A stretch of DNA of 64,000 bases from an archaeon (GTDB lineage: Archaea > Nanobdellota > Nanobdellia > Pacearchaeales > GW2011-AR1): the NCBI GenBank assembly GCA_018694115.1, contig JABHNB010000005.1, positions 69,660 through 133,659 of the forward strand. Direction: 5' to 3'. The notes under the pieces are model-generated. The model ran no database searches. It saw only the letters and a program-made list of their open reading frames with translations, and was not told the DNA's origin. The translations under genes were made by a program, and so were the position numbers. Positions 9,143 through 25,328 of this stretch are shown piece after piece. Position 1 is the first letter of the stretch; the number at the start of each line of letters is the position of its first letter.

Positions 9143-9230
9143 ATATTATATCCTCCGTCTAACTGACATAAAGCGAACTTTATGCTTTATTTTAAGACTA
9201 AATTTGCGGTTATAAGGTTATGGGTATACT

Positions 9231-10697
9231 CTATTTCATAACCTTTCTCAATTCCTCAGAAACCTCTTTTCCACTGACTTTTCCCTTGAATTTACCCATA
9301 ATTAGCCCCATATATGCCCCTTGTGAGAGCCCAGGCTTATCCTTAATCAACTTTTCAACTTCTCCAGCAAGATCTACATCAGATTTAGCCATGGCCTCAC
9401 TAATTGATTCGCCTGCCACAATTTTGCCCATAACGGTCTTCACATCATTCTCCGAGATCTTTCCTTTGGAAACATTCTCAAGTATCGCACCCAAAACATC
9501 GGCATCTAGGACCTTATCAATAGATTCCATACTTTCTCCAGACTTCTTTGAAAGTTCCTTGGGAAATAGTGCCAAGGCCTTAGCAACGAGATTTGGATTA
9601 TCAATAATTTTAGCTAAATCTGAAAATTCTTCAATCTTTCTCTGTTTTAACAATAATGCCATCATTTCATCATTCAAACCGAAATCTTTCAGGTAAGATT
9701 TATGTTCTGAAGCAAGTTTAGGCAAGTTCTTTCGAACATGATCTATTAATTTCTTAGGAATCTTAAGCAGTGGAACATCAGTTTCTGGATACATTCGCGC
9801 AGCTCCAGGCATAGGTCTTTGGAATTTCGACGAACCATCTGGAAGTGCACCTCGAACTTCATTCCTGCAAGTTTTGTTCTTGACACATTCTTGCTGTCTT
9901 TCAATCTCCTTATCAATTGTAGTCATCATCATCTTTGGATCTTGGAATCCCTTAATCTCCACTCGCTCACTACCCTTAATCGAGATATTAACATCCTGAC
10001 GAATTGTTCCAATCCCTCGCTTAACCTTGCATGCCCGCAGGATCTCACCAATCTTTAACGCAGCCTCCTTAATCGCTTCAGGAGTGTGCATATGGGGGCC
10101 AGTTGCAATTTCAACCAACGGAATACCCAATCTATCTAACTTATAGGTTTTGGAATTTTCATCTTCTTCTCCTCGCCGATCGGCGTACCCCTCTGCATTT
10201 GGGGCAGGCCTGGCAGAATCTTCTTCAAGCATAACTGCATCAATCGCAATCTTCCCGGCAGAAATTTCGATGTAACCATCATGAGCAATAAGTGCCGTCC
10301 TCTGAAATCCAGTTGTATTAGAACCATCAATCACCGTCTTCCGCATAACTTGAGTAACTGGAAAAATCTTACAATTCAAAAGCAAAGAAATCTGAAGGGC
10401 AATCTCAAGAGCCTCCTGATTAATGTCATGTGGCGGTTCCTCATCCAACTCCACAAGGCAATTAGTATCATAAACCTGATAAAGAAATTTCTTATCCTTC
10501 TCCTTTTCATGCGCTACAGCAACATCAATCTCACCAGTCTCACCAACAACAGGGTTCAATTTCCTCTCAATCACTCGTTCCGGCTCATCCGACCTAAGCA
10601 ACGAAGGACAATCACAGAATAATTTATTGGTATCTAACTGCTGATGGATCTCAAGACCCGACTTAAGTCCTATGTCCGCATAATCTTTCTTCGCCAT
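9231..10697 (-). CDS. gatE: Glu-tRNA(Gln) amidotransferase subunit E (short form)
   Basis: GLEIHQQL, DEEPPH, MRK.VIDGSNTTGFQRT, RGIGTIRQD, RMYPETD. Confidence 0.95.
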   Translation of the reverse strand: MAKKDYADIGLKSGLEIHQQLDTNKLFCDCPSLLRSDEPERVIERKLNPVVGETGEIDVAVAHEKEKDKKFLYQVYDTNCLVELDEEPPHDINQEALEIALQISLLLNCKIFPVTQVMRKTVIDGSNTTGFQRTALIAHDGYIEISAGKIAIDAVMLEEDSARPAPNAEGYADRRGEEDENSKTYKLDRLGIPLVEIATGPHMHTPEAIKEAALKIGEILRACKVKRGIGTIRQDVNISIKGSERVEIKGFQDPKMMMTTIDKEIERQQECVKNKTCRNEVRGALPDGSSKFQRPMPGAARMYPETDVPLLKIPKKLIDHVRKNLPKLASEHKSYLKDFGLNDEMMALLLKQRKIEEFSDLAKIIDNPNLVAKALALFPKELSKKSGESMESIDKVLDADVLGAILENVSKGKISENDVKTVMGKIVAGESISEAMAKSDVDLAGEVEKLIKDKPGLSQGAYMGLIMGKFKGKVSGKEVSEELRKVMK

Positions 10698-10736
10698 GTT
10701 TGAGAAAAGGATACTCGTTATAAAAATGTGATGGTT

Positions 10737-11132
10737 TTATTTTAAAGGCAAATGTCCCTTAATTGCCTTTCTCAATTGAGGGCGAGTCCACTTAAGCTGG
10801 AAATTATGATGGTCCAGATCCCTTAACTCTTTAAACTCCTCCGGAATCAATCTTTTAGAATCAGTCACATTAAGGACAACGATGTTCTTTCCTTTCATCT
10901 TAAACTTCTTTTTTAAATCACCAACCAATCTCTCCCGAACAACGATTATCACATCAGCCCAATCAATCTTTTTCTGCGACAGAGGATTCCATTTCCATTC
11001 CGGATTCTCTTTGTACGGCTCAATCCCCCCATGGGTCGTAGAATAGCCTTTCCCCCGAAGATATTTCGCAAGGTATTTGCTTCGGTTCATTCCTTTAGCA
11101 CAGACACATAGAACTTTTGTTTTCTTTTTCAT
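10737..11132 (-). CDS. Low-molecular-weight protein tyrosine phosphatase-like protein
   Basis: VLCVCAKGMNRS (CX5R) and WADVI; start at 11132 after a GAGGTG SD. Confidence 0.8.
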   Translation of the reverse strand: MKKKTKVLCVCAKGMNRSKYLAKYLRGKGYSTTHGGIEPYKENPEWKWNPLSQKKIDWADVIIVVRERLVGDLKKKFKMKGKNIVVLNVTDSKRLIPEEFKELRDLDHHNFQLKWTRPQLRKAIKGHLPLK

Positions 11133-11214
11133 TTCAACACCTCTTCCATCTAAAGCATCATTTGTATATAAATTTAACCAGAACCTATTTATACTTTCAA
11201 ACACTAAAAAATGA

Positions 11215-12138
11215 ATGAACAAAAAGAGACTAATCGGAATTTTCTTAATTATTTTTTCTAGCATAGTGGCCGTATCAAATTTAAAGTTCACTGGAGCAGT
11301 CATTGGATCTCCAAGTTTCAATTATTTTGGGTTAGCCTCAATTGGAATCTTTGCGGTAGGGTTATTTCTATTGTATAGTGGGAGGGGGAGATTTATTAGT
11401 GAGGCTGAGGGTCTCGAGGACATAATGGAGGAGATCGATACCAGGGGGTTTGGAAGTATTGTTATAGATTCTTCTGCAGTTATGACAGCAAAAAATGATG
11501 GGCAAAATGTGGCAAACGCATTGAGTAAATTTAAGGGAAAAATATACGTGCCTAAGAGTATTTATGGGGAGTTAAAACAAGATAGGGTATTGGGGAAAAT
11601 ATTTACTCATCCAGATTACAAGGGGAGAGTTATTATTAGTGATCTAGAGAAATCTAATCCCGAAGTTTATAGAAACTGCAAAAAGGAGGCAGTTAAATAT
11701 CTTAAAGATACGAAAAAACGGGAGGCTTTCGTAGATCTCACTAGTTATTACAGACAGCCAGATGATATGACTGACGAAGAATGGGCACAAAATAGGGTGG
11801 AGTTGGAAAGAGATTATGCAAAGGATATTGAGAGAGTAAGCGAACAGGCGGAAAAAAAGATAAGAAAAAAGACTGGAACCTTCAGGAACCCCACAAATGA
11901 AGAACAATATGCTGCATTGAGGAATTCCTATGGGGTATCAAAAGAGGATATTGACGTTCTAAGCACCGCATTTTTCCTAGGTACTTATCCTGCAGGAAAA
12001 TTCGCACCAAATAAATATTCTGTCATACTTTCCAATGATGGACACATAACAGAAGCAGTAAAAGATTTTCAAAGAAAAGTGCCCAAACGTAAGGAGAATG
12101 TAGAGTGTTATTCAGTTTGGGAGAGAAAGGCATCCTGA
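11215..12138 (+). CDS. Membrane-anchored PIN-like domain protein
   Basis: Two N-terminal TM segments around TGAVIG; IVIDSSAV, VP.SIYGEL, EDIDVL, LSNDGHI acidic PIN-type motifs. Confidence 0.65.
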   Translation: MNKKRLIGIFLIIFSSIVAVSNLKFTGAVIGSPSFNYFGLASIGIFAVGLFLLYSGRGRFISEAEGLEDIMEEIDTRGFGSIVIDSSAVMTAKNDGQNVANALSKFKGKIYVPKSIYGELKQDRVLGKIFTHPDYKGRVIISDLEKSNPEVYRNCKKEAVKYLKDTKKREAFVDLTSYYRQPDDMTDEEWAQNRVELERDYAKDIERVSEQAEKKIRKKTGTFRNPTNEEQYAALRNSYGVSKEDIDVLSTAFFLGTYPAGKFAPNKYSVILSNDGHITEAVKDFQRKVPKRKENVECYSVWERKAS

Positions 12139-12578
12139 CATCTCCCATCAATGTCTCTTCTAGTTTTCTCAATTTCTCTTTTCATTTTGGGTAAACCAAC
12201 TTCAAGATGGAATGGGGTTTCCATAACTCGAGTATATCCCTCCGCACAATCTGGGCCCCTTCCAAATGCACCTTTTTTGATGTCATAGAAAAGAATCCGA
12301 TCTCCTGCAGGAACAGCAAATCTTGTGTAATCTGGATTAGCATCGTTTAATCTTAATAATTCCACATCGTGCCAATCTCCTTTTATGACTGGAATTACCA
12401 ATGAACAGGGTTTTTTTAGGGCATACGGATTCTGAACATTCTTCCAGGCATGAAAAACAACATCATACGTTCTTTCTTTATCGCTAAAGAATTTCTTCTC
12501 TCCAAATAAAACTACCCCCTTATTAGAAGGATTTAAAGCAAAATCCTCTAATCGATTAAAAATTAATACCCTACTCAT
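12108..12578 (-). CDS. Hypothetical protein
   Basis: ORF coupled to the upstream RHH gene. Confidence 0.6.
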   Translation of the reverse strand: MSRVLIFNRLEDFALNPSNKGVVLFGEKKFFSDKERTYDVVFHAWKNVQNPYALKKPCSLVIPVIKGDWHDVELLRLNDANPDYTRFAVPAGDRILFYDIKKGAFGRGPDCAEGYTRVMETPFHLEVGLPKMKREIEKTRRDIDGRCQDAFLSQTE

Positions 12579-12711
12579 CCTTACCCTCCATCAATTTATT
12601 TAATGCGAACTCAACAACGTGAGACTTATTTCTAAACGTGCCACCACTAATGCAATCATCTAGCTTATCGATCATACTACCTTCTATACTAACACTAAGT
12701 TTCTTCTTCAT
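12571..12711 (-). CDS. Ribbon-helix-helix (CopG/MetJ-like) regulator, 46 aa, not in the ORF track
   Basis: MKKKLSVSIEGSMIDKLDDCISGGTFRNKSHVVEFALNKLMEGKDE. Confidence 0.85.
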   Translation of the reverse strand: MKKKLSVSIEGSMIDKLDDCISGGTFRNKSHVVEFALNKLMEGKDE

Positions 12712-12799
12712 CGTATAATGTCGTATAATATACGCCTTTTAAATCTTTCTAGTTGTAACTACTTTAAAATAATAATAATAAATAACTAACCTATAAAAA

Positions 12800-14587
12800 T
12801 TACTTAATATATCCGCCTTTCTGAAGGTTCCACAGCTTCTTGTATTGTCCTCGCTGATTGATCAACTGTCTGTGAGTTCCCATCTGGACAATCTTACCCT
12901 TATCCATAACAACGATCTTATCTGCTTTCATAATTGTAGATAAACGGTGAGCAATAATAATCGAAGTTCTACCTTGCATTAATCTTTCTAGGTCTTTCTG
13001 AATTTCCGCCTCAGTCTCAGAATCCAAAGCACTTGTCGCTTCATCCAGAACTAAGATCTTCTTATCCGCTAAGATCGCTCTAGCAATGCTAACTCTCTGC
13101 TTCTCTCCGCCAGATAATTTAACTCCCCTCTCCCCAACAACAGTATTTTCTTTATCAGGGAAATTAGCCACAAGCTTGTCCAACTGGGCAAACTTCATAG
13201 CCTTCATAACATCCTCCTTGCTCGCAGAAGGATTAGAGAACCGAATGTTATTGAATATGGTATCATCAAATAGAATCGCCTCCTGAGGAACAATAGACAT
13301 TTCACTCCTCAAAGACTCTTGTTTAAAGTCCCGGATATCCTTCCCATCAATCTTAATAGCCCCACGATTAACATCATAGAATCTGTAAAGTAACTTAACC
13401 AATGAAGTCTTCCCACATCCCGAATGTCCGACAAATGCCACTTTCCTATTCTTTCCAATTTTCAAGTTGAACTTATCGAATAATTTTCTCTTTCCATACT
13501 TGAATTCCATATCCTCGAACTCAATATCTCCTTTCCGAATTTTAAGGTTCTTAGCTCCAGGCTTATCCTTGATTCCATTTTCAATTTTATTGTACTGGAA
13601 TAGAACTTCAAAGTCTGCCATAGCTCGATAATAATTTCTTATCCCATGAACAAACCCAAATAGGTGTCCAATTAGGGTCCCATAAACCATATAGATAAAC
13701 GAAACAGTACCTATCGTTATCTCTCCTGCAAGGAATTGCTTTATTGAAAAGTAAACTATAAGGAATGTTCCTGTTGAAAGAATCAAAGACTGTACAGCAT
13801 CCATCCACCTGTAATATCCCCAATTTTTGAGTAGTGCCTTTCTAGAATTTTCACTTAGCTTTTTGAAACGAGCCTTTATCGAGTTTTCCTTACCGAAGTA
13901 TTTTATCGAATCAATATTCGTAAAAATATCCGCAACATTTGCCTTTTCAATATCTTCTTCATTTATAGAATCAATACTTGCTCCTTCTTGAAGCCTCTGC
14001 ATAAGGAAGCTATAGCCGATAAAAAGGACCATTGTTACAACTATTACGATTGCAGGGATAAGACTAAAATAAAGAAGTGATGCGAAAACGACAACTACTT
14101 GTAGGATCAATGGGGCAAAGTTGAACAAGATAACATCTGTTAACCTTTCTACCGCGCCCCCACTTCTAACAAGCCGAGAAATTAAACTTCCAGTCTTGTT
14201 TGTTGTATGAAAATTATGATCTAGGTGGATAAGATGATTGAAGAATTTTCTCTTAATATCTGCCATAAGCCAAACATCAAGAGTATTAATTCCATGGAGC
14301 TTAAACCAAATCAAAATTGATTGAAAAATCGCCTTTATTGCGAAAACGGTAGCAACAATGATTAGGATAGCAATGAAGGATCCTGCAGCTAAAGTTCCAG
14401 CAGAAAATTCGGTTCCATTATCAATAATAACCTTAAACAGGAAAGGACTTACAAGTCGGATAGACTCTGTCATTAAAATTACTAGGATTATCCCAAAAGT
14501 CAAAAGCTTATACTTCTTCAAAAAACTCCAGTACAAATTAAGATTATACTTGAAGTCAATTTCTCTGGATCTCTTACGTTTTTCCAT
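12800..14587 (-). CDS. ABC exporter, fused permease/ATPase (MdlB/MsbA/Atm1-like)
   Basis: N-terminal TM domain; GHSGCGKT, LSGGEKQR, LVLDEATSALD, IAHRLST. Confidence 0.95.
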   Translation of the reverse strand: MEKRKRSREIDFKYNLNLYWSFLKKYKLLTFGIILVILMTESIRLVSPFLFKVIIDNGTEFSAGTLAAGSFIAILIIVATVFAIKAIFQSILIWFKLHGINTLDVWLMADIKRKFFNHLIHLDHNFHTTNKTGSLISRLVRSGGAVERLTDVILFNFAPLILQVVVVFASLLYFSLIPAIVIVVTMVLFIGYSFLMQRLQEGASIDSINEEDIEKANVADIFTNIDSIKYFGKENSIKARFKKLSENSRKALLKNWGYYRWMDAVQSLILSTGTFLIVYFSIKQFLAGEITIGTVSFIYMVYGTLIGHLFGFVHGIRNYYRAMADFEVLFQYNKIENGIKDKPGAKNLKIRKGDIEFEDMEFKYGKRKLFDKFNLKIGKNRKVAFVGHSGCGKTSLVKLLYRFYDVNRGAIKIDGKDIRDFKQESLRSEMSIVPQEAILFDDTIFNNIRFSNPSASKEDVMKAMKFAQLDKLVANFPDKENTVVGERGVKLSGGEKQRVSIARAILADKKILVLDEATSALDSETEAEIQKDLERLMQGRTSIIIAHRLSTIMKADKIVVMDKGKIVQMGTHRQLINQRGQYKKLWNLQKGGYIK

Positions 14588-14638
14588 GTTCAGTCTGTTT
14601 ACTAATATTTATATAGTTTAAGCACCCCATATTTCCAG

Positions 14639-14734
14639 ATGGTTAATGTGGACATAATCGAAGGCAAGCATCAACGCACATGTAAGGAATATGCAACTTA
14701 CGACGATGAATATGCTGACGAATCGGGTGACTAA
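14639..14734 (+). CDS. Possible 31-aa acidic peptide
   Basis: MVNVDIIEGKHQRTCKEYATYDDEYADESGD; TTTATATA about 25 nt upstream. Confidence 0.35.
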   Translation: MVNVDIIEGKHQRTCKEYATYDDEYADESGD

Positions 14735-14768
14735 CTCTTTTATTAATTAGTGATTTTGCATATTTAAA

Positions 14769-15971
14769 TCATTCTGTGTGATTCTTTAGCCCGATTAAGA
14801 AGGCGATAGCAGTAAGAAATGCCAATCCCCCATTAACAAAGAGTGTATTTATCACCCCAATTGTCGAAATTCCAATACCTGTTAAAAACACACCGACTGA
14901 ATGTGCAATCGCCCAATTGATGCTATTCAATGAACCCAGGGATGCCCGAATCTTAGAATCGAATTCATGATGCAAAGCAGAATCTTCGACAACATCTGTA
15001 GCCGCTAACACAACAAGTAAAACTGCAAGAAAGACAATCGCCAAGATCAAGGAATTAAAGTAGGCCATTGAGATAATTGAAATCCCCATAATTCCAAAAA
15101 ATATAACCAGGCCAGATTTGAATCCTCTATGATGGACTACTTTTCTACCAATTAAAGGGCCAACAATAGCAAGAATCCCCAGAACAGCATATAGTCCCGG
15201 AACATATTCTGGCCCTAAACCATAAACGATAGTAAGCAATAGTGGGGCACAAACGAAAAAAGCACTTATTGTGATCGTGCTTATAATGCCTCCCAACATC
15301 AAGGCCCTAAGTTCACGATTATCTTTGTGGATCAAATAAACAAATGATTCTTTAGCTTTAATCAGGGACTTCACAAGATAATTATGTGGGACCTTGCTTG
15401 GCTTAAAGTTTCTCTCTTCCATATATCTCCAAGAGATAAAGAACAGAAACAAATAACTAAGTGCAATCAGCAACCAGATAAATCTAAAGTTGATAGCTAC
15501 AATAATAAATCCAATAAACCCTCCGATAACATGACCCGATTTCTCAAAAATAAAAGATTCCGAGATTAACTTAACAAGCTTAGACTTCTTCCTTGCATAA
15601 CCTAATGCATCAATCGCCCAAGCAAATTGTGCCCCAGAACTAAATGTCCAACCAATGTCCCCCAATATCCAAAAGAAAGCTAGAAACCAGAATTTAGTAA
15701 ACAAAAAGATTCCAAGGAAGCTAACAAAAATCAAGAAGTAGGAAATCATCAAGGACTTTTTCCGTGAATCATAATCTGCAACTGCCCCGGTAGGAAACTC
15801 AAAGAATGTCATAATCAATGTTGAAACTGCAAACAAGGTGGTAACTGCAACAACATTAAAACCTAGGGAAAGGAAGTAAATCAAGATCAGAGCAGAGACT
15901 AATGCTCGCCTCATCCCATGAGTAAAGTCTATACCATAAACTAAGGATTTTACTTTCTTAGAAAATTTCAT
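14769..15971 (-). CDS. MFS transporter
   Basis: About 12 TM; FEFPTGAVADYDSRKKS motif A variant. Confidence 0.92.
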   Translation of the reverse strand: MKFSKKVKSLVYGIDFTHGMRRALVSALILIYFLSLGFNVVAVTTLFAVSTLIMTFFEFPTGAVADYDSRKKSLMISYFLIFVSFLGIFLFTKFWFLAFFWILGDIGWTFSSGAQFAWAIDALGYARKKSKLVKLISESFIFEKSGHVIGGFIGFIIVAINFRFIWLLIALSYLFLFFISWRYMEERNFKPSKVPHNYLVKSLIKAKESFVYLIHKDNRELRALMLGGIISTITISAFFVCAPLLLTIVYGLGPEYVPGLYAVLGILAIVGPLIGRKVVHHRGFKSGLVIFFGIMGISIISMAYFNSLILAIVFLAVLLVVLAATDVVEDSALHHEFDSKIRASLGSLNSINWAIAHSVGVFLTGIGISTIGVINTLFVNGGLAFLTAIAFLIGLKNHTE

Positions 15972-16072
15972 CTTATCACCTATCCTTTCTTGGAGTTGTC
16001 CATTTAAATTACTTTCTTAGAGAAACTTAATATAATAGATAGTTTTTTAAATTGTAATACAACTAAATTAAT

Positions 16073-16147
16073 ATGGCAAGTAGAGAAAATAATACGCTAA
16101 CAGGTACGTTCATGTTTAGCCGTGCTTGCCCTATTTTCTGTGCATAA
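16073..16147 (+). promoter_or_regulatory. Putative leader peptide/attenuator of the ABC-F gene
   Basis: 24-codon uORF MASRENNTLTGTFMFSRACPIFCA overlapping competing helices, ending 24 nt before the ABC-F ATG. Confidence 0.5.
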
Positions 16148-16171
16148 AGTCTTGTGCTTTAGGGGAGATCT

Positions 16172-17803
16172 ATGAAAAATTTACTAAATATTTCTGACGA
16201 TACCATGATTTCTATACAAAATTTATCAAAACGTTTTGAAAGAGACAATTTATTTGAGGGCATTAATTTAGTCCTTCATTCAAAGGAAAAAATCGCCTTT
16301 ATTGGAAAGAATGGTTCTGGAAAAACAACCTTCTTCAATTGTTTAGCCGGTAAGGAAAGCTTTGATGGAAGAATCTTTGTTTCAGAGATAAAAATAAGTC
16401 TAATGGAGCAGGAGCAGAACTTTTCTAACCTAGACAAGACATTCGAGGAATATCTGGATGATAAGAACGAAAAGTTAGAAGGGCTAAAAAAACAATTGGA
16501 AGAGAAAATCGGAGATCCTGAAGTTTATGAGAATGAGGATAAGTACAATTCCCTGATGGATGAATATAATCTTCTCTTAACAGATCCTTCCACAAATTCA
16601 GAACAAAGAAGCACAAAAGAGATCCTCAAGGAACTGAAGATGGATAAGAAGCTTCTAAATCAAAAGATTAAGAATCTTAGCGGAGGACAAAAAACTAAGT
16701 TAAGGCTCGCAGAATGTTTATCTAAAAAAGCAGACCTATATTTGTTAGACGAACCAACAAACAATCTAGATCTGACTACAAGAGAATGGCTTGAAGCATA
16801 TATCAACAACAATATAGAGAACTTAATTGTTATCTCACATGATCGATATTTCTTAAGCAAGGTAGTTGGAAAAGTATGGGATTTAGAAAATCAACAGATA
16901 ATTTCATGGAACTATCCCTTCGATGAATATCTTGATAGAAAGAAGAAACACTTGGCAGTCCTAGAAAGAAAATTCAAAGATGCAACAAAGAAGAAAAAGC
17001 AATTACTTGAGTCTGCAGCGGAAAAAAGACACTGGGCTGCAAAATGTGGGAATCGAACGAAGAAGGTAATTGCAGATAGGCTAGAAAGGCAAGCAAAAGA
17101 ATTGGAAAATGTAGAAAATCCTTTTGACTTTATCAAAGATATCGATATCGGGTTTAATAGCAAGAACCTCCATAACTGTAACATCTTCAGGTTGGAAAAT
17201 GTCGAAAAGAAATTTGATAAAGTCCTATTTGAAAATGTCGATCAAGAGATAGATTTTGGAGAGCGGATTTGTATTATTGGGGAAAATGGAACTGGAAAGT
17301 CCACCTTCTTGAAAATGCTAATTGGAAAAATTCCCCAATCAAAGGGAGACTTGTATCGAAGAAAGGATGTTAAGATAGGCTATTTCGATCAGGAACTAGA
17401 AGAACTTGATAAGGAACAAACAATAATGAAATTCTTCATAAATGAGACAGACCTAGACGAAGAACATTTAATTCCCTTCCTTGAAAAGTATGGTTTTGAA
17501 AAAGAAAGTTTTCAGAAAAAGATAAAGCATCTTTCTGGAGGAGAAAAGGGAAGATTGAATATCTTGAGAATAGCCATTGAAAAGAACAATATCTTAGTGC
17601 TAGACGAACCAACAAATAACCTAGACATCTATTTAGTCGAATCTCTAGAAAACGCATTAAAGGAATTCAAGGGAACAATCATCTTCGTATCTCACGACAG
17701 ATACTTCGTAGATAAAGTCGCAACAAGAATCCTAGAAATCAAAGATAAGAAAATATCAAGTTTCAAGGGAAATTATTCAAAGTATTTGGAATCTCGAAAG
17801 TGA
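16172..17803 (+). CDS. ABC-F family ribosome-associated ATPase
   Basis: Two ABC domains without TM (GKNGSGKT/LSGGQ/LLDEPTNNLD/SHDRYF; GENGTGKS/LSGGE/LDEPTNNLD/SHDRYF) joined by a helical linker. Confidence 0.95.
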   Translation: MKNLLNISDDTMISIQNLSKRFERDNLFEGINLVLHSKEKIAFIGKNGSGKTTFFNCLAGKESFDGRIFVSEIKISLMEQEQNFSNLDKTFEEYLDDKNEKLEGLKKQLEEKIGDPEVYENEDKYNSLMDEYNLLLTDPSTNSEQRSTKEILKELKMDKKLLNQKIKNLSGGQKTKLRLAECLSKKADLYLLDEPTNNLDLTTREWLEAYINNNIENLIVISHDRYFLSKVVGKVWDLENQQIISWNYPFDEYLDRKKKHLAVLERKFKDATKKKKQLLESAAEKRHWAAKCGNRTKKVIADRLERQAKELENVENPFDFIKDIDIGFNSKNLHNCNIFRLENVEKKFDKVLFENVDQEIDFGERICIIGENGTGKSTFLKMLIGKIPQSKGDLYRRKDVKIGYFDQELEELDKEQTIMKFFINETDLDEEHLIPFLEKYGFEKESFQKKIKHLSGGEKGRLNILRIAIEKNNILVLDEPTNNLDIYLVESLENALKEFKGTIIFVSHDRYFVDKVATRILEIKDKKISSFKGNYSKYLESRK

Positions 17804-17809
17804 TTTTAT

Positions 17810-19015
17810 TTACTCACTTATTTCTTCTTCCTTAATCCGAGAATAGATAAAAATTACCAAAAACATCAAGGGGGCATAAATGAAAATTGTATACCTTGCC
17901 CCAATAACATCTACTAAGTATCCTACGAGAGGCATCGCGACGATTCCGGCCAGGGATGCTATCATCGAATCAACACTTTTCATCGTAGCTCTCAATTTAG
18001 AAGGAACAAACCTATGGAAATACATCTTTGACGCAGGCATTCCTAACATCATGAAAAATTGAACCGCAAGAAGAATAATTAATGCAGGAATCCACCTTTT
18101 CGGAAGTAAAATAAAAAACATAGTCAACGCAGAAAGAAAGAATCCAATCATAATAAATTTCTTCTCTTTCTTTTCCTTCAAAAATTTACTTGAAATAATC
18201 GGAGATGTCATCATGATAACTGCTATCGCAGACCACATATATCCAAAGTAATGTGCCGGAAAATCAAGATCAAGTAAGAACGGCGTCCATGTCATGCTTA
18301 TCCCAAAACTAAGGGCTACAACGAAAACAAATGTCGCCATAAGATAATAATAAAGAACGGGGTGCTTATATCCATAAGAAACAGTCTCCTTGGATTGCCT
18401 AAATAATCCCCTAAAGGATCTTCCGATCTTCACCTTTCTTTTAGCAAAATTCTCTTTCGCAAAAAGAAGTATTGAAACGGAAATCATAAACGAAAAAAAT
18501 GCAAAAAGCCAGATACTTGACATGCCAAACCATTTAACTAAAAAAGCTCCCAATATCCCCGAGATAACTAGGGCAAACGCATCAATGCCTTGCGACTTAT
18601 GGAAATAACTTCGAGATAGATTTTTCCCTTTTCCCTTAACAAGATCAATAACCCACGCCTCCTTACTCCCCGAGGAAAGCGTGCTCGCAAAACCTAAGGC
18701 TGCAAAAGCAGCTAACAACAGATAATAATCTCTCACAAAAAACAAACTCAAGACAACCAATCCCTCAAGAGAAATCCCAAGCAAAACCGAGAATTTCCGG
18801 CCATACAAATCTGCAACGGCTCCTGTCGGAATTTCAAATATTAGCATAAACAAGGGCGTGACCGCAATCAATAAACCAATTTGAAAAAAACTTAACTCAA
18901 GTCCCGTAAGAAAAACCACAATGAACGCCGGCAGGAAATACAGCAAGGGAGAAAGTAGCGCATCCAAGTAAAACGGCCATAATAATTTCAATTCGTTTTT
19001 CTGAAAGAATTTCAT
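17810..19015 (-). CDS. MFS transporter
   Basis: About 12 TM; FEIPTGAVADLYGRKFS; coupled to the kinase genes. Confidence 0.92.
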   Translation of the reverse strand: MKFFQKNELKLLWPFYLDALLSPLLYFLPAFIVVFLTGLELSFFQIGLLIAVTPLFMLIFEIPTGAVADLYGRKFSVLLGISLEGLVVLSLFFVRDYYLLLAAFAALGFASTLSSGSKEAWVIDLVKGKGKNLSRSYFHKSQGIDAFALVISGILGAFLVKWFGMSSIWLFAFFSFMISVSILLFAKENFAKRKVKIGRSFRGLFRQSKETVSYGYKHPVLYYYLMATFVFVVALSFGISMTWTPFLLDLDFPAHYFGYMWSAIAVIMMTSPIISSKFLKEKKEKKFIMIGFFLSALTMFFILLPKRWIPALIILLAVQFFMMLGMPASKMYFHRFVPSKLRATMKSVDSMIASLAGIVAMPLVGYLVDVIGARYTIFIYAPLMFLVIFIYSRIKEEEISE

Positions 19016-19992
19016 TTTATCTCCCGCAAAATTTTGCTTTTATTATTCCAATACCACTGGGCAGCTTCTGAGTAACGTTTGAATTTGGGGTTCTTCATAC
19101 GTTTCTTATCGTTTACAAATAACCAATACTGATACTCAAAATCTTCGATAAACCCTGCAGCAATTATGTCTGGGATCAATTGTAGTTCTATCTTCCTCAA
19201 TTTCCGGTATTTCATGTATTCCCTTAAAAAAAATCGGGCATTTTCAAAACTCAATCGGAGTTCATTATCTGAACAAGAATACTGTAAGATTATGCAGATA
19301 TCCTTAACAAAAGCATCATTTCCAAAAGCAACATTTTCAAAATCTAAAACTCCTGAGATTTTCCCGCGATGCCACAAAATATTATCCTGATGTAAATCCC
19401 TATGGATCGCATATTTCTTCAACCGAGAATATTTCTTAACGTTCACCCCATTAAAAATCGGAATAAGTTTTTCAGTCTCATTCAAATAACTCCTCTCTTC
19501 CTTAGATAATTTTTTCAATTTACTAAGCTTTCGGATAAACTTCCCCATCTCATTAAGAACCTCCTTCTGTCCCAAATCATTAATATCCTTCCCGCTACTT
19601 CGCAATTTCAATTTTTCTAAAATGTTATGGTGCTCTGAAACCATCTTAGCAACTTCTCTTAATTCCCGCTTTTTGAATTCCTTTTTTATCTTTCCCTCAA
19701 TAAAATTATCTAACCAAAAATATTTCTTATTGACCTTCACTAAAAATTTATTCTTTATCGTTGATATGGGATTTGGTGTGGGATATTTAAAACCGCTTGC
19801 CTGCAATTTTTTTAGATAATCAATCTCAAACTTAAGATCAGAAGTTTTTCTATTCATTAAAAATTTTCTCAAGAAATATTTACCCTTATCTGTCTCAACA
19901 AACCAGTTATAGTTGACTACCCCTTCTTCTGAGAGTTTTATCTTCTTAATCTTGCCAATACCCCAATTCTTTAGAACTTTTTCAGGTTTCAT
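19012..19992 (-). CDS. APH/homoserine kinase type II-like phosphotransferase
   Basis: GVVNYNW, IHRDLHQDNIL, GVLDFE. Confidence 0.9.
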   Translation of the reverse strand: MKPEKVLKNWGIGKIKKIKLSEEGVVNYNWFVETDKGKYFLRKFLMNRKTSDLKFEIDYLKKLQASGFKYPTPNPISTIKNKFLVKVNKKYFWLDNFIEGKIKKEFKKRELREVAKMVSEHHNILEKLKLRSSGKDINDLGQKEVLNEMGKFIRKLSKLKKLSKEERSYLNETEKLIPIFNGVNVKKYSRLKKYAIHRDLHQDNILWHRGKISGVLDFENVAFGNDAFVKDICIILQYSCSDNELRLSFENARFFLREYMKYRKLRKIELQLIPDIIAAGFIEDFEYQYWLFVNDKKRMKNPKFKRYSEAAQWYWNNKSKILREIK

Positions 19993-20927
19993 TTTATCTC
20001 CCTCAACAAACCCTTAACCCTCTCGGAGCTTGATTTCAAATAAAGGTATTGTTTATGCTTTGATTTTTTCAGTTCTGAATAAAACCACCAAAAAACAACA
20101 CAACTATCTCGGATAATAAATGGAAGAATCATGGCTATTTCTTTTTTAGACAGGGGATTAATCTTTTGATATTCTCTAAGTAGGTTTTTCATTTTTGATT
20201 TGCTTAACTTGGATTTATTAAAACAATATTGTTTTACTGCGTAGGCAATATCTCTAACTCTCGGAGAAACAATTACACTTTCAAAATCCAAAATCCCAAC
20301 CACTTCATTTCCATCAAAAAGTAAATTACCTTGATGGAAATCTGTGTGATTAGCTAGGAGTCCCGTCTCCAGATTAATTGATACATCCTTTAAACAATCC
20401 TTGAAGAGATCAATATTTTCTAACATTATTCTATCAACTTTATTTTTTGGTTTAACCTTCTCCATAACTGAATATTTCTTCATTAACCAAATATAGTCTT
20501 CCTTCAACCTTCGGGCATTCATGCTCGAAACATATTTATGGTATACTGCTAGGGCTTTCACCAAACTCTTGAGTTGAGCCCCGTTAATTTTGGACACCTT
20601 CTTGCCCTTAATCCTTTCATAAATCCATAAATTCCTACCCTTAACGGTCGTTAAAACCTGTCCTTTCTTATTCTTAATTGGATCCGGAATTCGATAAGGA
20701 AATTTTTTCTTCTTAAGGTAATTGAGGACCCGGAACTCTAATTTTAACTTTCGTTTCTTGTAATCGTCTAGTTTTCTGCCGAGGAATCTAAATACATAGT
20801 CCCCTCCGTCAGTTTTAACATTAAAGTTATAATTTACCAGTCCCCCTCCAATCGAACTTATCTTCTTAACCTTCCCCAAATCATATAATTTCGTAGCTCT
20901 TTCGACTTCTTGCTTTGTTATCTTCAT
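19989..20927 (-). CDS. APH/homoserine kinase type II-like phosphotransferase
   Basis: GGLVNYNF, NHTDFHQGNLL, GILDFE. Confidence 0.9.
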   Translation of the reverse strand: MKITKQEVERATKLYDLGKVKKISSIGGGLVNYNFNVKTDGGDYVFRFLGRKLDDYKKRKLKLEFRVLNYLKKKKFPYRIPDPIKNKKGQVLTTVKGRNLWIYERIKGKKVSKINGAQLKSLVKALAVYHKYVSSMNARRLKEDYIWLMKKYSVMEKVKPKNKVDRIMLENIDLFKDCLKDVSINLETGLLANHTDFHQGNLLFDGNEVVGILDFESVIVSPRVRDIAYAVKQYCFNKSKLSKSKMKNLLREYQKINPLSKKEIAMILPFIIRDSCVVFWWFYSELKKSKHKQYLYLKSSSERVKGLLREIK

Positions 20928-21877
20928 CCCAACCCCTCCGAAAACTCCTCCGCCAAAGTCTCACAAAACATTTCATACTTTCGTATCCACTTCTTGACAG
21001 CCTTTCTAAGTCTTTTCTCCATATCTGAATGTTTCTTCAACTGAGAAACATGCCAACCAATAATCCCCTGAAATCGATGCTTGATAAAAAAGTAGATCGC
21101 TTCCCTTTCACTAGGATTGAGCTTGAAGTATTTCTCAAAACCTTTCAAATAAAGTTTAATCTTCCCATAATCTACTCTCCCTTTCCAATCAATAAAACTC
21201 ATCGTGATAAAATTGGATATTTCTTGAACAACAAAATCTTCATGGGCATCATCTAAATCTATGATCGCATTCAACTTCTGGTTTTTAACTAGGAGGTTGC
21301 CTCGATTAAAATCTCCGTGAACAACACTTCTCCGAAGTTTTTTCTTATTTATCTGCTTCAACTCTTCTCTCAATTTTTTATTCTCTTTAAGTATCTCAAA
21401 TCCTTCATGACGAATAACATCAAACATCAATGGTTTAAACTGATAGTCTTTCTTCCAGGTATGTTTTCCTTCCAATCCCATTTTCATCAATGCCCTATTC
21501 AACCTTCCGTGCTTCTCCGCAATATCCTCAATTAACTTTCTCGTAAATCTCTTTGCCGGTTTCCCTTCTACAAATTTTTGAATAACAATCTTCTTTTTAT
21601 TGAAAATCAAAAGTGGCCCATCATTACACATCATCACCCGCGGACTAGGGAGTTTTTCTTTCTCCATTAATTGCATAATCTTCAATTGAAATTCAATGAA
21701 ATCCTTTTTCGCGTTCTCAAATATCTTTAGAATGAATTTCCCCCTAGTCGTCTTCAAAAGATAGACAGTATTCCCCAATGCCCACGGAAGATGCTTATGA
21801 GATTTATGTTCACCAATTTTGTAATTCTCGAGAATCTCTTCAAAATCCTTATTCTGGAGTTTAGTTAATATTGCCAT
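20924..21877 (-). CDS. APH/homoserine kinase type II-like phosphotransferase
   Basis: MAILTKL ThrB-II-like N-terminus, NTVYLL, VHGDFNRGNLL, AIIDLDD. Confidence 0.9.
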   Translation of the reverse strand: MAILTKLQNKDFEEILENYKIGEHKSHKHLPWALGNTVYLLKTTRGKFILKIFENAKKDFIEFQLKIMQLMEKEKLPSPRVMMCNDGPLLIFNKKKIVIQKFVEGKPAKRFTRKLIEDIAEKHGRLNRALMKMGLEGKHTWKKDYQFKPLMFDVIRHEGFEILKENKKLREELKQINKKKLRRSVVHGDFNRGNLLVKNQKLNAIIDLDDAHEDFVVQEISNFITMSFIDWKGRVDYGKIKLYLKGFEKYFKLNPSEREAIYFFIKHRFQGIIGWHVSQLKKHSDMEKRLRKAVKKWIRKYEMFCETLAEEFSEGLG

Positions 21878-21880
21878 TCA

Positions 21881-22297
21881 TCACAACCCTCCAATAACCT
21901 CATTTATTTTCTCCTCATTTTCCTTAAAAAATTCTTTTATCGCTTTTGCATCTCCAACAGAAACATTATGCCCATAATATTTTGAACTGTTTCTTTTATA
22001 TCTAAACTGATCAAACTCCCCAACAAATACAACATCAAATCCAAATTTATCTAAATATGCAATGGACGCCGAGTGAGAATATGATTTAAATCCCTTAGCT
22101 GCAAGAACTGCATCACAAAAAGCCCTCAAGGCATCATAGACATTCTCATATATAATCTTTGGAAAAATATTTATGTCCAACAAATCAACTTTAGAAATTC
22201 TATCTTTCATATCTTTAATCAATGATTCCGACAAGGCACTATCAACTGAAGCTTTTTTTACCTCCCCATTTTTCAAATAGTAATCAAATGGCTTCAT
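21881..22297 (-). CDS. HEPN domain protein (toxin of an MNT-HEPN pair)
   Basis: YDALR...GFKSYSH...FDQFRYKRNSSKYYG. Confidence 0.8.
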   Translation of the reverse strand: MKPFDYYLKNGEVKKASVDSALSESLIKDMKDRISKVDLLDINIFPKIIYENVYDALRAFCDAVLAAKGFKSYSHSASIAYLDKFGFDVVFVGEFDQFRYKRNSSKYYGHNVSVGDAKAIKEFFKENEEKINEVIGGL

Positions 22298-22805
22298 TTT
22301 TTATCCCCCCGTAAAGTGTAACGCCATTTATTAAATTATTAAAAAATTCACGAGTAATGTCTTTTTTTGAAGGAATCAATATATGGATCTTTCTCTTAAG
22401 TTTCTTTTCAAACCTATCCAAATCAAATTGCTTTTTAGTCTCACTTGAAATAACGATATCAATATCAGATTTCTCAATATCTTCTCCACGGGAATAACTT
22501 CCAATTAGGGTTATAGAAGACGGAGAATATTTTTCTTTTAAATAAGTTAATAGTCCTGAATCAAATACTCCCTTAAGATTTTCAATTTTCTTCACAAAAA
22601 TGGTTTTCTCATTTTCCAAATTCAATTTTATTTCAATTAAATGCTTTTTCTTGTTCTTAGTAACAATTCCCTCACTCTTAAGTTCATCAGTTATCTTAAT
22701 CAAACTATTTGGATGAACCTTACCTTTCCTCGCAAGCTCTCTAAGGTGGAAAGAATATGTCGGATTCTCAAATAATATCCTCAATACTTTCTTTTTATTA
22801 TCCAT
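22284..22805 (-). CDS. HTH plus minimal nucleotidyltransferase (MNT antitoxin)
   Basis: HLRELAR HTH; GSYSRGEDIEKSDIDI. Confidence 0.9.
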   Translation of the reverse strand: MDNKKKVLRILFENPTYSFHLRELARKGKVHPNSLIKITDELKSEGIVTKNKKKHLIEIKLNLENEKTIFVKKIENLKGVFDSGLLTYLKEKYSPSSITLIGSYSRGEDIEKSDIDIVISSETKKQFDLDRFEKKLKRKIHILIPSKKDITREFFNNLINGVTLYGGIKNEAI

Positions 22806-22812
22806 CTTAAAC

Positions 22813-22852
22813 AATTGTACAATTTAATGTACAATTGTACAGAATTATGTAC
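22813..22852. promoter_or_regulatory. Array of TGTACA palindromes in the MNT-HEPN promoter (putative operator)
   Basis: AATTGTACAATTTAATGTACAATTGTACAGAATTATGTAC between the TATA box and the start codon. Confidence 0.6.
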
Positions 22853-22879
22853 TTTTAAACATTTCGACCCGGGAATTCT

Positions 22880-23653
22880 CTACTTTATCTCCCGTAACAA
22901 CAACTCTGACCTCGCCAAACCAGCTTCCAAATGTTCTGCCTTATGCTCATCAGTTCCAATAAGAATCTCAATTCCCAATCCCTTGGCCTCCCTCAAAATC
23001 CACAAACTAGGATATTGCTCATCACAGGGCCTTCTCCATCCCGACGCATTGAGGTCAAGCTTCATCTTTTTCTTTGAGATCAATTTCAGAGTCTTTCGAA
23101 CTTCCTTCATATACCAATCTTCATCTCCAGAAAAATATTTATTATTTTTATTCCAAACTTTGATTATATCAAAATGTGCAACAACATCAAACCAACCACT
23201 CTTAATTGCGCTTCTTAGATCAGAATAATAATTCTTAACCAGTTTCTTAATTCCCCCCGAGCTCTTAACCATCTTCTCAAACGATTCCTTAGAATGGTCT
23301 ATTGGAAAATACTCTTTTCCGATTTTGACAAAGTGCACTGAAACAAGTCGATAATCAAATCTTTTCTTAGCCTCCTTCTTAGTCCAAGACTTATAGTCCT
23401 TCAACCAATCAAATTCAACTCCAACAAGAATTTTTATTTTACCCTTATACTTTTTCTTTAATCTCTTTAGTTCACGGAAATGTTCGGTAGAATAATAGTC
23501 ATTGCCCCAATCTCTAAATCCTGGTGGAAAATGATAATGATCTGTAATCCCCAAAATATCAAACTTCTTTCTAATGGCAAGCTTAACTAATTCCTCGGGT
23601 TTCAACTTTCCATCAGATCCAGTAGTATGTGTATGATAATTTGCTTTCACCAT
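22880..23653 (-). CDS. PHP-family phosphatase (histidinol-phosphatase HisK-like)
   Basis: NYHTHT, ITDH, GVE, SVH, AHFD, GTDEH. Confidence 0.9.
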   Translation of the reverse strand: MVKANYHTHTTGSDGKLKPEELVKLAIRKKFDILGITDHYHFPPGFRDWGNDYYSTEHFRELKRLKKKYKGKIKILVGVEFDWLKDYKSWTKKEAKKRFDYRLVSVHFVKIGKEYFPIDHSKESFEKMVKSSGGIKKLVKNYYSDLRSAIKSGWFDVVAHFDIIKVWNKNNKYFSGDEDWYMKEVRKTLKLISKKKMKLDLNASGWRRPCDEQYPSLWILREAKGLGIEILIGTDEHKAEHLEAGLARSELLLREIK

Positions 23654-23732
23654 CTTTAACCTCTTCAACAAAAACGCCCAATAGCTTTAAATATTCTTTC
23701 TTCTATTATTGATTAGTCAAAAGGAGGTAAAA

Positions 23733-24011
23733 ATGGAACTTAAAAACGTAAAATTCAAATCTGCGGTTTTTCTGGGAGTATTCACATTAGTATATTTATT
23801 AATCGTGGGAGCTCTTCAGCTAATACTAAAATCTGCATCAGTTGGGGTTGCAGGATATGACCAATTACTTGGAAATGTCACTCCACTTATGGTGTTAGTA
23901 CAAGTACCAGTAACTGGTGCAGTAACTGCTTACATCTTCGGACTTATAGCAATCTTAGTCTATAATTTCGTAGCAAAGAAATACCCAATAAGCTGGAACC
24001 TTAAGAAATAA
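23733..24011 (+). CDS. Small two-TM membrane protein
   Basis: GGAGG SD; two hydrophobic helices ending in YN..AK. Confidence 0.75.
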   Translation: MELKNVKFKSAVFLGVFTLVYLLIVGALQLILKSASVGVAGYDQLLGNVTPLMVLVQVPVTGAVTAYIFGLIAILVYNFVAKKYPISWNLKK

Positions 24012-24047
24012 TTCCACCTAATTTTATTATTATTTTTCTCTTTTTCT

Positions 24048-25328
24048 TTATTCTTTTATACATTCATTCAGCTCGCCAGAGAAATTCTCGAGCATCTTTT
24101 CTTCAACCTTGTCTCTATCCGCTGCCCAGGTCTTATGTCCTAAAACCCAACCCAACTTAACTAATGCAGTCTCGCTCAACATATCCTTCAAGAAGACAAT
24201 TCCTGTCTTTTGTAAATCTCGACCAGCAGTATAAACATTCGGATTCAATCGGCCAAAGATCGTCTGAGCCGTTGCACAGATAATCATCCCACCATCAATC
24301 GCTTTCTTAATTTTAGGCAGCCAGTTAAACTTCGCATCCTGTGCGGGAACTTGTCCGATCCCCGTGATCTCAAGAATAAGTCCTCCATAACCAAGATCTT
24401 TGTAAAATTCTATAATTGAGGGATCCTGTCCGGGAGTAATTTTAATTGAAGCTATCTTATCAGAATACTTTGCATCCGGCTTTACCTTTCGAGAATCGTC
24501 TCGAGCATTAAACTCTTTTAGAATCTTCATTCCTTCCTTAGAAATCTCTGCAATTGGCTCTCCATTCACAATCTTAAATGCATCTCTCCTGGAAGTGTGC
24601 AACTTCCTAACTTTTGTTCCAGGCATTGCAAGACAAACTCCATCATTTTCATCCTTATGGCCAATAAGTGCAACCTCTGCAATATCTGAAACAGCATACT
24701 TGGCAGCACAAATAAGATTTAATGCAGCATCTGTAGAAGCTCGGTCAATTGATCTCTGAGAATAGGTCAAAGCAACTGGCTTATTCAAGTTCTTAAGGAA
24801 AAACGAGAGTGCGGCAGAAGTATAATGTAAGAAATCTGTCCCATGAGTAATAATTACTCCATCAATTTCAGAATCATTAAGTAACTCTTCACAAACCCCT
24901 GCCAACCCCTTCCAATCAATGAATCCCATATTTTCCGACCATTTCATAAACGGTTTCTCAATCTTAACAACATTACAAATCTTACTAATTTCTGGGGCAA
25001 TATTCAATATCTCTTTAGCATCTGTAGAAATAACTCCCCCACTCTTTGGATCTAGCCTAGAAGAGATGGTGCCTCCGGTGATAATCATCGCAACATTTCG
25101 TAGCTTTTTATTTTCCTTAGCTTCAATTTCCGGGACCTTACGTTCTTGTGCCTTTTCAACAACTTTCATATCCAAAATTTCTCGCTCGCGAATTCCGATA
25201 TTATATCCAGAACCAAGTTTCAGCAAAACAATTTCTGGATCATAACTCTCAAGAACATTACCTTTCCAGCTTTTATCCTTCGTTCTTAGAGAAACAAGAT
25301 CTCCCGGGTTAATTTCTTTAACTTTCAT
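24048..25328 (-). CDS. gatD: Glu-tRNA(Gln) amidotransferase subunit D
   Basis: LKLGSGYNIG N-domain, TGGTISS, HGTD, SQRS.DR, RK.HTSRRDAF. Confidence 0.96.
   Translation of the reverse strand: MKVKEINPGDLVSLRTKDKSWKGNVLESYDPEIVLLKLGSGYNIGIREREILDMKVVEKAQERKVPEIEAKENKKLRNVAMIITGGTISSRLDPKSGGVISTDAKEILNIAPEISKICNVVKIEKPFMKWSENMGFIDWKGLAGVCEELLNDSEIDGVIITHGTDFLHYTSAALSFFLKNLNKPVALTYSQRSIDRASTDAALNLICAAKYAVSDIAEVALIGHKDENDGVCLAMPGTKVRKLHTSRRDAFKIVNGEPIAEISKEGMKILKEFNARDDSRKVKPDAKYSDKIASIKITPGQDPSIIEFYKDLGYGGLILEITGIGQVPAQDAKFNWLPKIKKAIDGGMIICATAQTIFGRLNPNVYTAGRDLQKTGIVFLKDMLSETALVKLGWVLGHKTWAADRDKVEEKMLENFSGELNECIKE

Follow-up and report, generated by a model that had tools for sequence, protein, structure and literature searches.

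We investigated a stretch of 64,000 nucleotides (nt) of archaeal DNA, referred to as the window (positions 69,660 to 133,659 of contig JABHNB010000005.1, assembly GCA_018694115.1, forward strand), in which a block of genes for transporters, APH-fold kinases and an ABC-F ATPase lies between gatE and gatD. The assembly measures 0.9 Mb and is 82.7% complete. The gatD and gatE equivalogs on either side of the block (NCBIfam), together with named homologues from Pacearchaeota, Woesearchaeota or Nanoarchaeota, identify the host as an archaeon and agree with an earlier note on this DNA, which had named a DPANN host. The same note had described about 11 kb holding an ABC exporter, two major facilitator superfamily (MFS) transporters, an ABC-F protein, three kinases, a HEPN-MNT pair and a PHP phosphatase. 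Open reading frames (ORFs), Pfam, NCBIfam and PADLOC place all of these genes where the note had them, and the block proved to be larger than it had supposed. The insert between gatE and gatD spans 10698-24047 (13,350 nt) and also takes in three genes without assigned function at 10737-12578. The features are listed below with coordinates and strand; lengths of proteins are in amino acids (aa).

9231..10697, minus: gatE, short form, 488 aa; left flank (NF003107 GatE, 482 bits, cut-off 456)
10737..11321, minus: 194-aa protein without family match, within the insert (Pfam and NCBIfam blank)
11215..12138, plus: 307-aa protein with a hydrophobic N-terminus (weak sub-cut-off Pfam matches only)
12108..12578, minus: 156-aa protein (Pfam and NCBIfam blank)
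12800..14587, minus: half-size ABC exporter, MsbA-like, with a transmembrane domain and a nucleotide-binding domain (NBD) (PF00664 and PF00005)
14769..15971, minus: MFS1 (PF07690, 52.8 bits); 200-nt spacer to the divergent ABC-F gene
16172..17803, plus: ABC-F ATPase with two ABC_tran stretches (PF00005) and ABC_tran_Xtn (PF12848, 27.8 bits)
17810..19015, minus: MFS2 (PF07690, 95 bits); last gene of a six-gene operon, convergent with the ABC-F gene
19012..19992, minus: kinase APH1 (PF01636, 63.6 bits); HRDLHQDN and DFE motifs kept
19989..20927, minus: kinase APH2 (PF01636, 76.8 bits)
20924..21877, minus: kinase APH3 (PF01636, 82.2 bits)
21881..22297, minus: HEPN-like 138-aa protein (PADLOC PDC-M05B, E 1e-8)
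22284..22814, minus: winged helix-turn-helix (wHTH) plus minimal nucleotidyltransferase (MNT), first gene of the operon (PF01909 NTP_transf_2, 38.7 bits; PDC-M05A, E 5e-14)
22817..22852, no strand: three TGTACA palindromes in an inverted repeat, just upstream of the MNT gene, between PHP and MNT
22880..23671, minus: PHP phosphatase, HisJ-like (NF005996, 145.8 bits, cut-off 133)
24048..25328, minus: gatD; right flank (NF003217, 409 bits, cut-off 310)

The gatD-gatE junction as a cargo site

The positions of gatD and gatE were compared across 40 further genomes of the genus. The two genes follow each other, gatD then gatE, on one contig in 25 of them; the gap between the matches measures 326-843 nt in 20 genomes and is enlarged in five (1.0, 1.4, 2.2, 3.6 and 6.5 kb). 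Two genomes have both genes on the same contig but more than 250 kb apart, 11 have them on separate contigs, and gatD was unmatched in two. What fills the five enlarged gaps is unrelated to the cargo of the window; small unknowns are among it, as are genes for a large nucleotidyltransferase, a DEAD-box helicase and a beta-helix protein. Since the gap is large here and either short or filled with unrelated cargo in relatives, the block is a real accessory island, present in this genome and absent from the same site in its relatives. In this genus the junction of gatD and gatE serves as a cargo site, and what it carries differs between members. The G+C content of the block also departs from its surroundings, with 0.335-0.367 over 12-24 kb versus 0.38-0.41 on both sides.

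Other marks of an island were sought at the borders. Att-like repeats, a tRNA or an integrase are all absent from them: there is no tRNA within 8 kb, no long flanking direct repeat, and no integrase family among the window genes (Pfam, NCBIfam). A 20-nt repeat at gene junctions (19010-19029 and 19987-20006, with a partial copy at 22884-22897) was considered as a cassette signature and rejected, because it is made up of a shared C-terminal LREIK, a GGGAGAT ribosome-binding site and an overlapping ATGA. The LREIK C-terminus is common to APH1, APH2 and the unrelated PHP protein, and the DNA there is near-identical; GGGAGAT is found at all three LREIK ends, and the ATGA stop/start overlap with the next gene at two of the three. 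A scan for sigma-70 promoters and terminators gave sites no commoner than in shuffles, with a model that is not applicable to archaea.

Two side observations concern the flanks. GatE has two forms in the genus, a short one of about 470-510 aa, as here, whose gene adjoins gatD, and a long one of 615-638 aa, whose gene lies away from gatD. The long form is found in 9 genomes, all among the 13 in which gatD and gatE are far apart or on separate contigs. Beyond gatD, at 25745-29347 on the plus strand, lies a 1200-aa ORF with no Pfam or NCBIfam match, whose first 124 residues share 45% identity with an ORF that precedes the ABC-F gene in another locus (L011).

The kinase and transporter genes

From MNT to MFS2, six genes overlap by 4-14 nt or lie 3 nt apart and thus form one tight co-directional unit. 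All three kinases in it exceed the PF01636 cut-off of 23.2 bits and carry the catalytic HxDxxxxN loop and the metal-binding aspartate, and H194, D196, N201 and D214 are invariant in 14 kinase sequences. The three are well diverged, with mutual identities of 20-29% (20-23% for APH3 with either of the others). For each of them the best NCBIfam model is the type II homoserine kinase (ThrB_alt, NF003558/TIGR00938), at 107-132 bits versus a cut-off of 271, and the best PDB sequence match is the homoserine kinase 2PPQ (E 1e-11 to 1e-14); APH1 reaches E 4e-13 on 2PPQ and also matches amicoumacin kinase weakly. An AlphaFold (AF2) model of APH2 with pLDDT 91.4 gave, in Foldseek order, 2PPQ (TM 0.74), YtaA/CotI, the N-acetylhexosamine kinase NahK, APH(9), amicoumacin kinase (AmiN), YihE and APH(2''). 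APH2 and APH3 additionally have weak matches to the CotS/CotI spore-coat kinases and to WaaY/RfaY, far below cut-offs.

The earlier note had drawn a parallel with the bacterial mef/msr/mph macrolide-resistance triad. Taken as homology, this kinship finds no support for any of the three members. On the kinase side, no Mph entry is found among the best 50 Foldseek matches of APH2 and no Mph-named NCBIfam model matches any of the three kinases at E<=0.001. Mph(E) and APH2 are 22% identical by BLASTP (E 0.015) and a profile comparison with Mph(E) reaches a probability of 88.7%; similarity beyond the shared APH fold was not found. Judged by sequence and by the APH2 model, the kinases are generic APH-fold enzymes with type II homoserine kinase, and not Mph, as their nearest relative. 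They resemble the branch of type II homoserine kinase, CotS and amicoumacin kinase in having 2PPQ as the best match in both sequence and structure and in keeping the HxDxxxxN and DFE/DLD motifs. They differ from it in their sub-cut-off scores, in the genomic setting without a detected homoserine dehydrogenase, and in forming three tandem paralogues with an exporter-type MFS.

Neither homoserine dehydrogenase nor histidinol dehydrogenase was found in the genome at its 82.7% completeness, and the same searches were positive in 14 of 14 control genomes. A part in threonine synthesis for the ThrB-like kinases, or in histidine synthesis for the HisJ-like phosphatase, is therefore unlikely. The PHP protein does score above the HisJ cut-off (TIGR01856, 144.4 bits versus 90.2), but its substrate is probably other than that of HisJ, because no histidinol dehydrogenase was found.

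Both MFS proteins belong to the general MFS_1 family of Pfam and are 24% identical to each other. The NCBIfam models nearest to MFS2 are all exporters and all below cut-off, namely TetA(P), the DHA3 model TIGR00900 (52.3 bits, cut-off 319.6), Tet(40) and HP1165. MFS1 has only weak matches, to the exporter models Tet(40), TetA(P) and EntS, and is unmatched by TIGR00900. No Mef-named model occurs among the NCBIfam matches of either protein, so that neither can be placed in the Mef/DHA3 group. The best NCBIfam model of the ABC exporter is MsbA_rel, with 393 bits, below its cut-off of 780.

The operon is headed by an overlapping pair of genes that both match the PADLOC candidate PDC-M05 (A and B). 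The pair is like the HEPN-MNT system (type VII HepT/MntA) in combining a minimal nucleotidyltransferase with a small helical HEPN-like protein. It differs in several respects: the nucleotidyltransferase, whose likelier start is an ATG at 22805, bears an N-terminal wHTH and reaches 24.6 bits on the MntA model, below the cut-off of 60; the HEPN-like protein has no Pfam match at E<=0.01; and the pair heads a six-gene operon instead of standing alone. For the HEPN-like protein an Atlas rank-10 cluster named 'HEPN domain-containing' (score 0.95, 58% of members with a HEPN family) is a lead only. The toxin motif of HEPN proteins is Rx4-6H; the translation holds a segment RNSSKY, with a tyrosine where the motif has its histidine, and a histidine is found eight residues past the arginine. 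The three TGTACA palindromes upstream of the pair form TGTACAATTGTACA and AATTGTACAATT and are a candidate operator. Because the pair heads the operon behind this palindromic site, HEPN/MNT may act in regulating the operon no less than in stabilising it.

The number of kinase genes was also compared with that in relatives. With five Pfam APH genes this genome has the most among 41 genomes of the genus; the other 40 have none (23 genomes), one (10), two (6) or three (1). All five lie within about 2.5 kb of a gene for an MFS or MacB-type permease. Three are those beside MFS2. A paralogue of APH1 with 42% identity is located on contig C7 of the same genome (L087, about 44.7-49.1 kb), between two MacB/FtsX-type permease genes and with an ABC ATPase gene upstream, where all four genes overlap or abut. 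The fifth is 2.2 kb from another MFS gene (L088).

Relatives of APH2 were detected in 13 of 200 genomes of the order. We collected 14 distinct loci with an APH2 orthologue, of which 13 were annotated; the genome-contig profile scan for kinase loci was built on five closer sequences. The kinase is paired with MFS2, with the ABC exporter, with PHP and with a second kinase in one of the 14 loci each. The MFS2 pairing is found in genome G202 (L084), where an MFS2 orthologue with 48% identity lies 0.7 kb from the APH2 orthologue in the same operon. Seven overlapping genes at 5454-11424 of this locus encode an ANT(2'')-like nucleotidyltransferase, a PNP/UDP phosphorylase, a SET protein, the APH2 orthologue, an EEP phosphatase, the MFS2 orthologue and a GNAT protein; a methyltransferase gene precedes the array, and gatD is 6 kb away. 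In L116 the APH2 orthologue is accompanied by an orthologue of the ABC exporter (60% identity) and two MFS genes. A PHP orthologue with 65% identity is located 0.75 kb upstream of the APH2 orthologue in L113, and an APH3 orthologue with 38% identity lies 1.1 kb from it in L079. The last locus also has a 53%-identical homologue of the 194-aa insert protein, 1 kb from the two kinase orthologues.

GNAT genes occur within 4.5 kb of the APH2 orthologue in 5 of the 13 annotated loci, and NUDIX, HAD, His_Phos and HD hydrolases are also among its neighbours. In L115 the APH2 orthologue itself also matches the choline/ethanolamine kinase family. These recurrent pairings are suggestive of a common pool of small-molecule-handling accessory genes, to which most of the island genes would belong. 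As a separate observation, an ORF at 10354-11520 of L116, in an archaeal metagenome-assembled genome (MAG), joins Sigma70_r4 with the C-terminal domain of bacterial RNA polymerase alpha.

The ABC-F ATPase

The second main component of the island is an ABC-F protein by its general features, with two PF00005 stretches, no membrane domain and a PF12848 score above the whole-protein cut-off of 25.9 bits; the linker match is weak at the domain level (21.9 bits). The Walker B glutamates and signature motifs are intact in both halves. The protein scores 412.6 bits on the model for 'ribosomal protection-like ABC-F' (NF000355, cut-off 380). We rejected this as a sign of antibiotic-resistance (ARE) function, because the model is not discriminating: a YbiT-type protein, with 946 bits on its own model, passes as well (397 bits). 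The Msr model (ABCF_Msr_all, NF000168) gives 361.5 bits and has a cut-off of 680. No other subfamily cut-off is passed either, with 303 bits for EttA (cut-off 599), 323 for YbiT (762), 317 for Uup (900), 308 for Vga (725) and 290 for Lsa (750), and the scores are also below cut-off for the YheS-type, Sal, OptrA, CplR and producer-type models. A phmmer search of PDB gave EttA (282 bits) and YbiT (250 bits).

The earlier note had proposed to place the protein by its phylogeny. Our tree (IQ-TREE, LG+C20+F+G4, quick search) has 38 sequences, made up of 20 from DPANN, the four nearest bacterial matches and 14 references from plasmid records and E. coli K-12. The references were the E. coli K-12 proteins Uup, YbiT and YheS, two EttA, Msr(A), Msr(E), Lsa(E), an Lsa-family protein, OptrA, PoxtA and three unassigned ABC-F. 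Vga, VmlR, Sal, YdiF and eukaryotic ABCF were not among the 18 sequences from outside DPANN. The DPANN proteins form a single clade (SH-aLRT 100) with a stem of 1.05 substitutions per site and two subclades, and one genome holds one copy of each subclade. So far this clade is known from DPANN archaea only. The position of this clade is less clear, as the backbone is poorly supported. In the free tree the clade is not sister to Msr; a tree constrained to that relation costs 0.39 log-likelihood units (p-AU 0.48) and one constrained to EttA 0.03 units (p-AU 0.51), and neither is rejected.

The architecture is more informative. The distance from the H-loop of NBD1 to the Walker A motif of NBD2, which measures the linker, is as follows.

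ABC-F of the window: 148 residues
DPANN clade: 144-152 residues
EttA, Uup, YheS, OptrA, YbiT: 140-143 residues
PoxtA: 151 residues
Lsa: 172 residues
Msr(A)/Msr(E): 175-176 residues

The ABC-F of the window also has an arm insertion, with 124 residues between Walker A1 and the signature motif compared with 63-65 in Msr(A) and Msr(E). It does not share the Msr architecture of a long linker without an arm. With arm and short linker, the protein is built like the housekeeping E-site factors, EttA among them. PoxtA and OptrA, whose linkers are short too, show that such a linker can go with a protective role. The protein resembles the bacterial EttA, YbiT and Uup types in its two NBDs, the lack of a membrane domain and of a C-terminal extension, the NBD1 arm (121-130 residues from Walker A1 to signature in those types) and the linker length. 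It differs from them in failing all subfamily models, in forming its own clade, in its setting in an archaeon with an archaeal ribosome, and in being accessory, whereas those factors are near-universal.

The distribution of the ABC-F is patchy. We found it in 6 of 36 genomes of the genus, in none of 24 that represent eight other families of the order, and in 5 out of 400 sampled across the phylum. A homologue search returned more than 100 clusters (at 90% identity) at 46% identity or more, and the closest homologue, 97% identical, is found on a 76-kb contig; another, 83% identical, is on a 133-kb contig. The rarity of ABC-F proteins in archaea, which the earlier note had pointed out, is borne out by these counts and agrees with the literature. 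A 2019 survey (PMC6723617) calls them rare in archaea: it names almost no archaea, with only the YdiF type in Methanomassiliicoccus-like genomes, and a DPANN clade is not reported in it, although its supplements could list further archaeal matches. In the library that we searched, no paper pairs ABC-F or ABCF with DPANN.

We compared 10 other ABC-F loci from genomes (L009-L013, L144-L148) and 13 from metagenomes (L020-L032; 57-81% identity; in 8 of the 13 one side extends for 5 kb or more). For L020-L032 and L144-L148 the comparison of neighbours was by tblastn with the island proteins only. In this tblastn comparison, homologues of the APH kinases, MFS1, MFS2, HEPN, MNT and PHP were found in none of the 23 loci. 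An ABC exporter orthologue is near the ABC-F gene in 2 of the 10 genome loci, L009 and L012 only; its identity to the exporter of the window, there and in L116, is 56-60%. It adjoins the ABC-F gene in L012, which also has a different MFS gene nearby and an LPG_synthase_C gene adjoining both, and occurs as two tandem copies 4-8 kb from it in L009. The other neighbours vary and include DnaK-GrpE-DnaJ, the CCA-adding enzyme, a nitroreductase and RNase P p30. The modules are unlinked in nearly all relatives, and the island is a mosaic that was not inherited as a unit.

Possible functions of the island

The comparison with the bacterial triad implies a macrolide target. Macrolides, lincosamides and streptogramin B have a low affinity for ribosomes with a G at position 2058 of the 23S rRNA (E. 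coli numbering). No assembled large-subunit (LSU, 23S) rRNA was found in the genome itself, and the base that aligns with E. coli A2058 was taken instead from 18 archaeal 23S genes found in the order. All 6 genes from the same genus have G; the 12 others comprise 10 with G and 2 with A. A macrolide-directed triad is unlikely because of the G in the relatives, and macrolides as the target of this island are accordingly unlikely, contrary to what the triad had suggested; other ribosome-targeting compounds may still be the target. The two genes with A (L131 and L133, genomes G048 and G053) belong to one genus, and such ribosomes might bind macrolides. A 12-nt motif for position 2058 was unfit for this group; its two matches were a non-rRNA site and a bacterial LSU contig. 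This contig, in an archaeal MAG (L123, G024:C5), carries a bacterial LSU rRNA (2325 bits with the bacterial model) and a 5S rRNA, and is probably a mis-binned contaminant.

The island is like the msr(E)-mph(E) and mef-msr operons in bringing members of the ABC-F, APH-fold and MFS superfamilies together within a few kb; on the plasmid record behind L099, msr(E) directly adjoins mph(E). The differences go beyond the low scores on the Msr model, the 22% identity of Mph(E) to APH2 and the G at 2058. Msr lacks the arm and its linker is about 27 residues longer than that of the window ABC-F, the ABC-F gene runs towards the kinase-MFS operon from the opposite strand and is not part of its transcript, and the linkage is not kept in relatives.

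With moderate confidence we read the block as a strain-specific accessory island at a variable-cargo site, in which a kinase-plus-exporter module and an independent accessory ABC-F stand together as a mosaic of separately inherited modules. The operon headed by the wHTH-nucleotidyltransferase and HEPN-like pair, with its three diverged APH kinases and exporter-like MFS, would form a modify-and-expel module. Its substrates would be small molecules that carry hydroxyl groups, with each of the three kinases covering a range of its own. The MsbA-type ABC exporter, the second MFS and the PHP phosphatase would be further genes of small-molecule handling alongside. The ABC-F of the DPANN clade would bind the E site of the archaeal ribosome as a dispensable rescue or protection factor, independent of the other genes.

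Several observations weigh against this reading. Each recurrent pairing was seen in 1 or 2 loci only. These compact genomes commonly pack unrelated genes tightly, as in L113, where the kinase has NifU, a cysteine desulfurase-type aminotransferase and a VanX-like peptidase for neighbours, so that a common operon says little about a common function. Metabolic kinases (for homoserine, GlcNAc and aminopropanol) and antibiotic kinases occur side by side among the structural neighbours of APH2. The conservation of the island was compared without the source of the 97%-identical ABC-F, and integrase, tRNA and flanking-repeat marks of mobility are all missing at the insert.

The earlier note had seen in these genes a coordinated, multi-layer defence against translation inhibitors, in which efflux, an ARE-type ABC-F and drug phosphorylation would be combined and the HEPN/MNT pair would be a stabilising toxin-antitoxin system. 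What stands of this proposal is the strain-specific accessory island and the recurrence of kinases beside exporter-family transporters, but homology, co-inheritance and the macrolides are not supported, and we consider the proposal unlikely. The gene classes are indeed those of resistance determinants, and the ABC-F is accessory and patchy as AREs are. The Msr sister relation was not rejected, the Msr model is the second-best NCBIfam score of the protein, and PoxtA, a genuine ARE, has a similarly short linker. The structural neighbours of APH2 include APH(9), APH(2'') and amicoumacin kinase, and the orthologous kinase of L084 shares its operon with an ANT(2'')-like nucleotidyltransferase, a GNAT and an MFS gene. 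However, the kinases and MFS are unlinked from the ABC-F in all 23 other loci, no ARE subfamily model was passed, the one model that was passed also accepts a bona fide YbiT-type protein, and the EttA sister relation is equally unrejected. The arm and short linker are a housekeeping build, the G at 2058 makes macrolides, lincosamides and streptogramin B poor candidates, the MntA score is too low, and the HEPN toxin motif is equivocal.

A scavenging locus is likewise doubtful. Here the MFS proteins would import host metabolites, the kinases would trap them by phosphorylation, PHP and the ABC exporter would belong to related metabolism, and the ABC-F would be an unrelated housekeeping protein. 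A 0.9-Mb genome in which no homoserine or histidinol dehydrogenase was found fits a dependence on salvage, and the metabolic kinase 2PPQ is the best match of all three kinases in sequence and of APH2 in structure. The choline/ethanolamine kinase match in L115 and the NUDIX, HAD, His_Phos and HD hydrolases near the orthologues are also consistent with it. On the other hand, the nearest characterised relatives of MFS1 and MFS2 are the exporters TetA(P), Tet(40), EntS, HP1165 and DHA3, and the paralogous kinase stands between two MacB/FtsX-type permease genes. Permeases of this type are not known as importers. The ThrB_alt scores are far below cut-off, and kinases as accessory as these, with an APH2 relative in so few genomes of the order, would be odd for a core salvage step. 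We think it quite improbable that the block is a cell-envelope module, in which the kinases, like enzymes of the CotS, WaaY or Kdo-kinase type, would phosphorylate the head groups of lipids or glycans and the MsbA-like exporter and MFS would flip or export the products. The weak APH2 and APH3 matches to CotS/CotI and WaaY/RfaY, the second rank of YtaA/CotI among the structural matches of APH2, the closeness of the ABC exporter to MsbA lipid flippase models and the LPG_synthase_C gene of L012 point in this direction. All of the CotS, WaaY and MsbA matches are far below their cut-offs, however, no glycosyltransferase or lipid-synthesis gene is found in the insert (Pfam, NCBIfam), and the ABC-F would be left without a role.

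An expansion of APH kinases beside exporters in a 0.9-Mb genome is unexpected under strong genome reduction. The most interesting element of the island is the ABC-F clade, which is accessory and patchy in Pacearchaeota- and Woesearchaeota-type genomes of DPANN. It raises the question whether a bacterial-style E-site ATPase can work on the archaeal ribosome, and for what purpose. It is possible, though we regard it as rather unlikely, that DPANN archaea have an ABC-F subfamily of their own for the archaeal ribosome, joined here with kinase-exporter modules into an archaeal counterpart of the bacterial resistome. If this were true, the island would give protection against ribosome-targeting or other natural products of hosts or neighbours, and with its ABC-F an ARE-like ribosome protection factor would be on record for Archaea for the first time.

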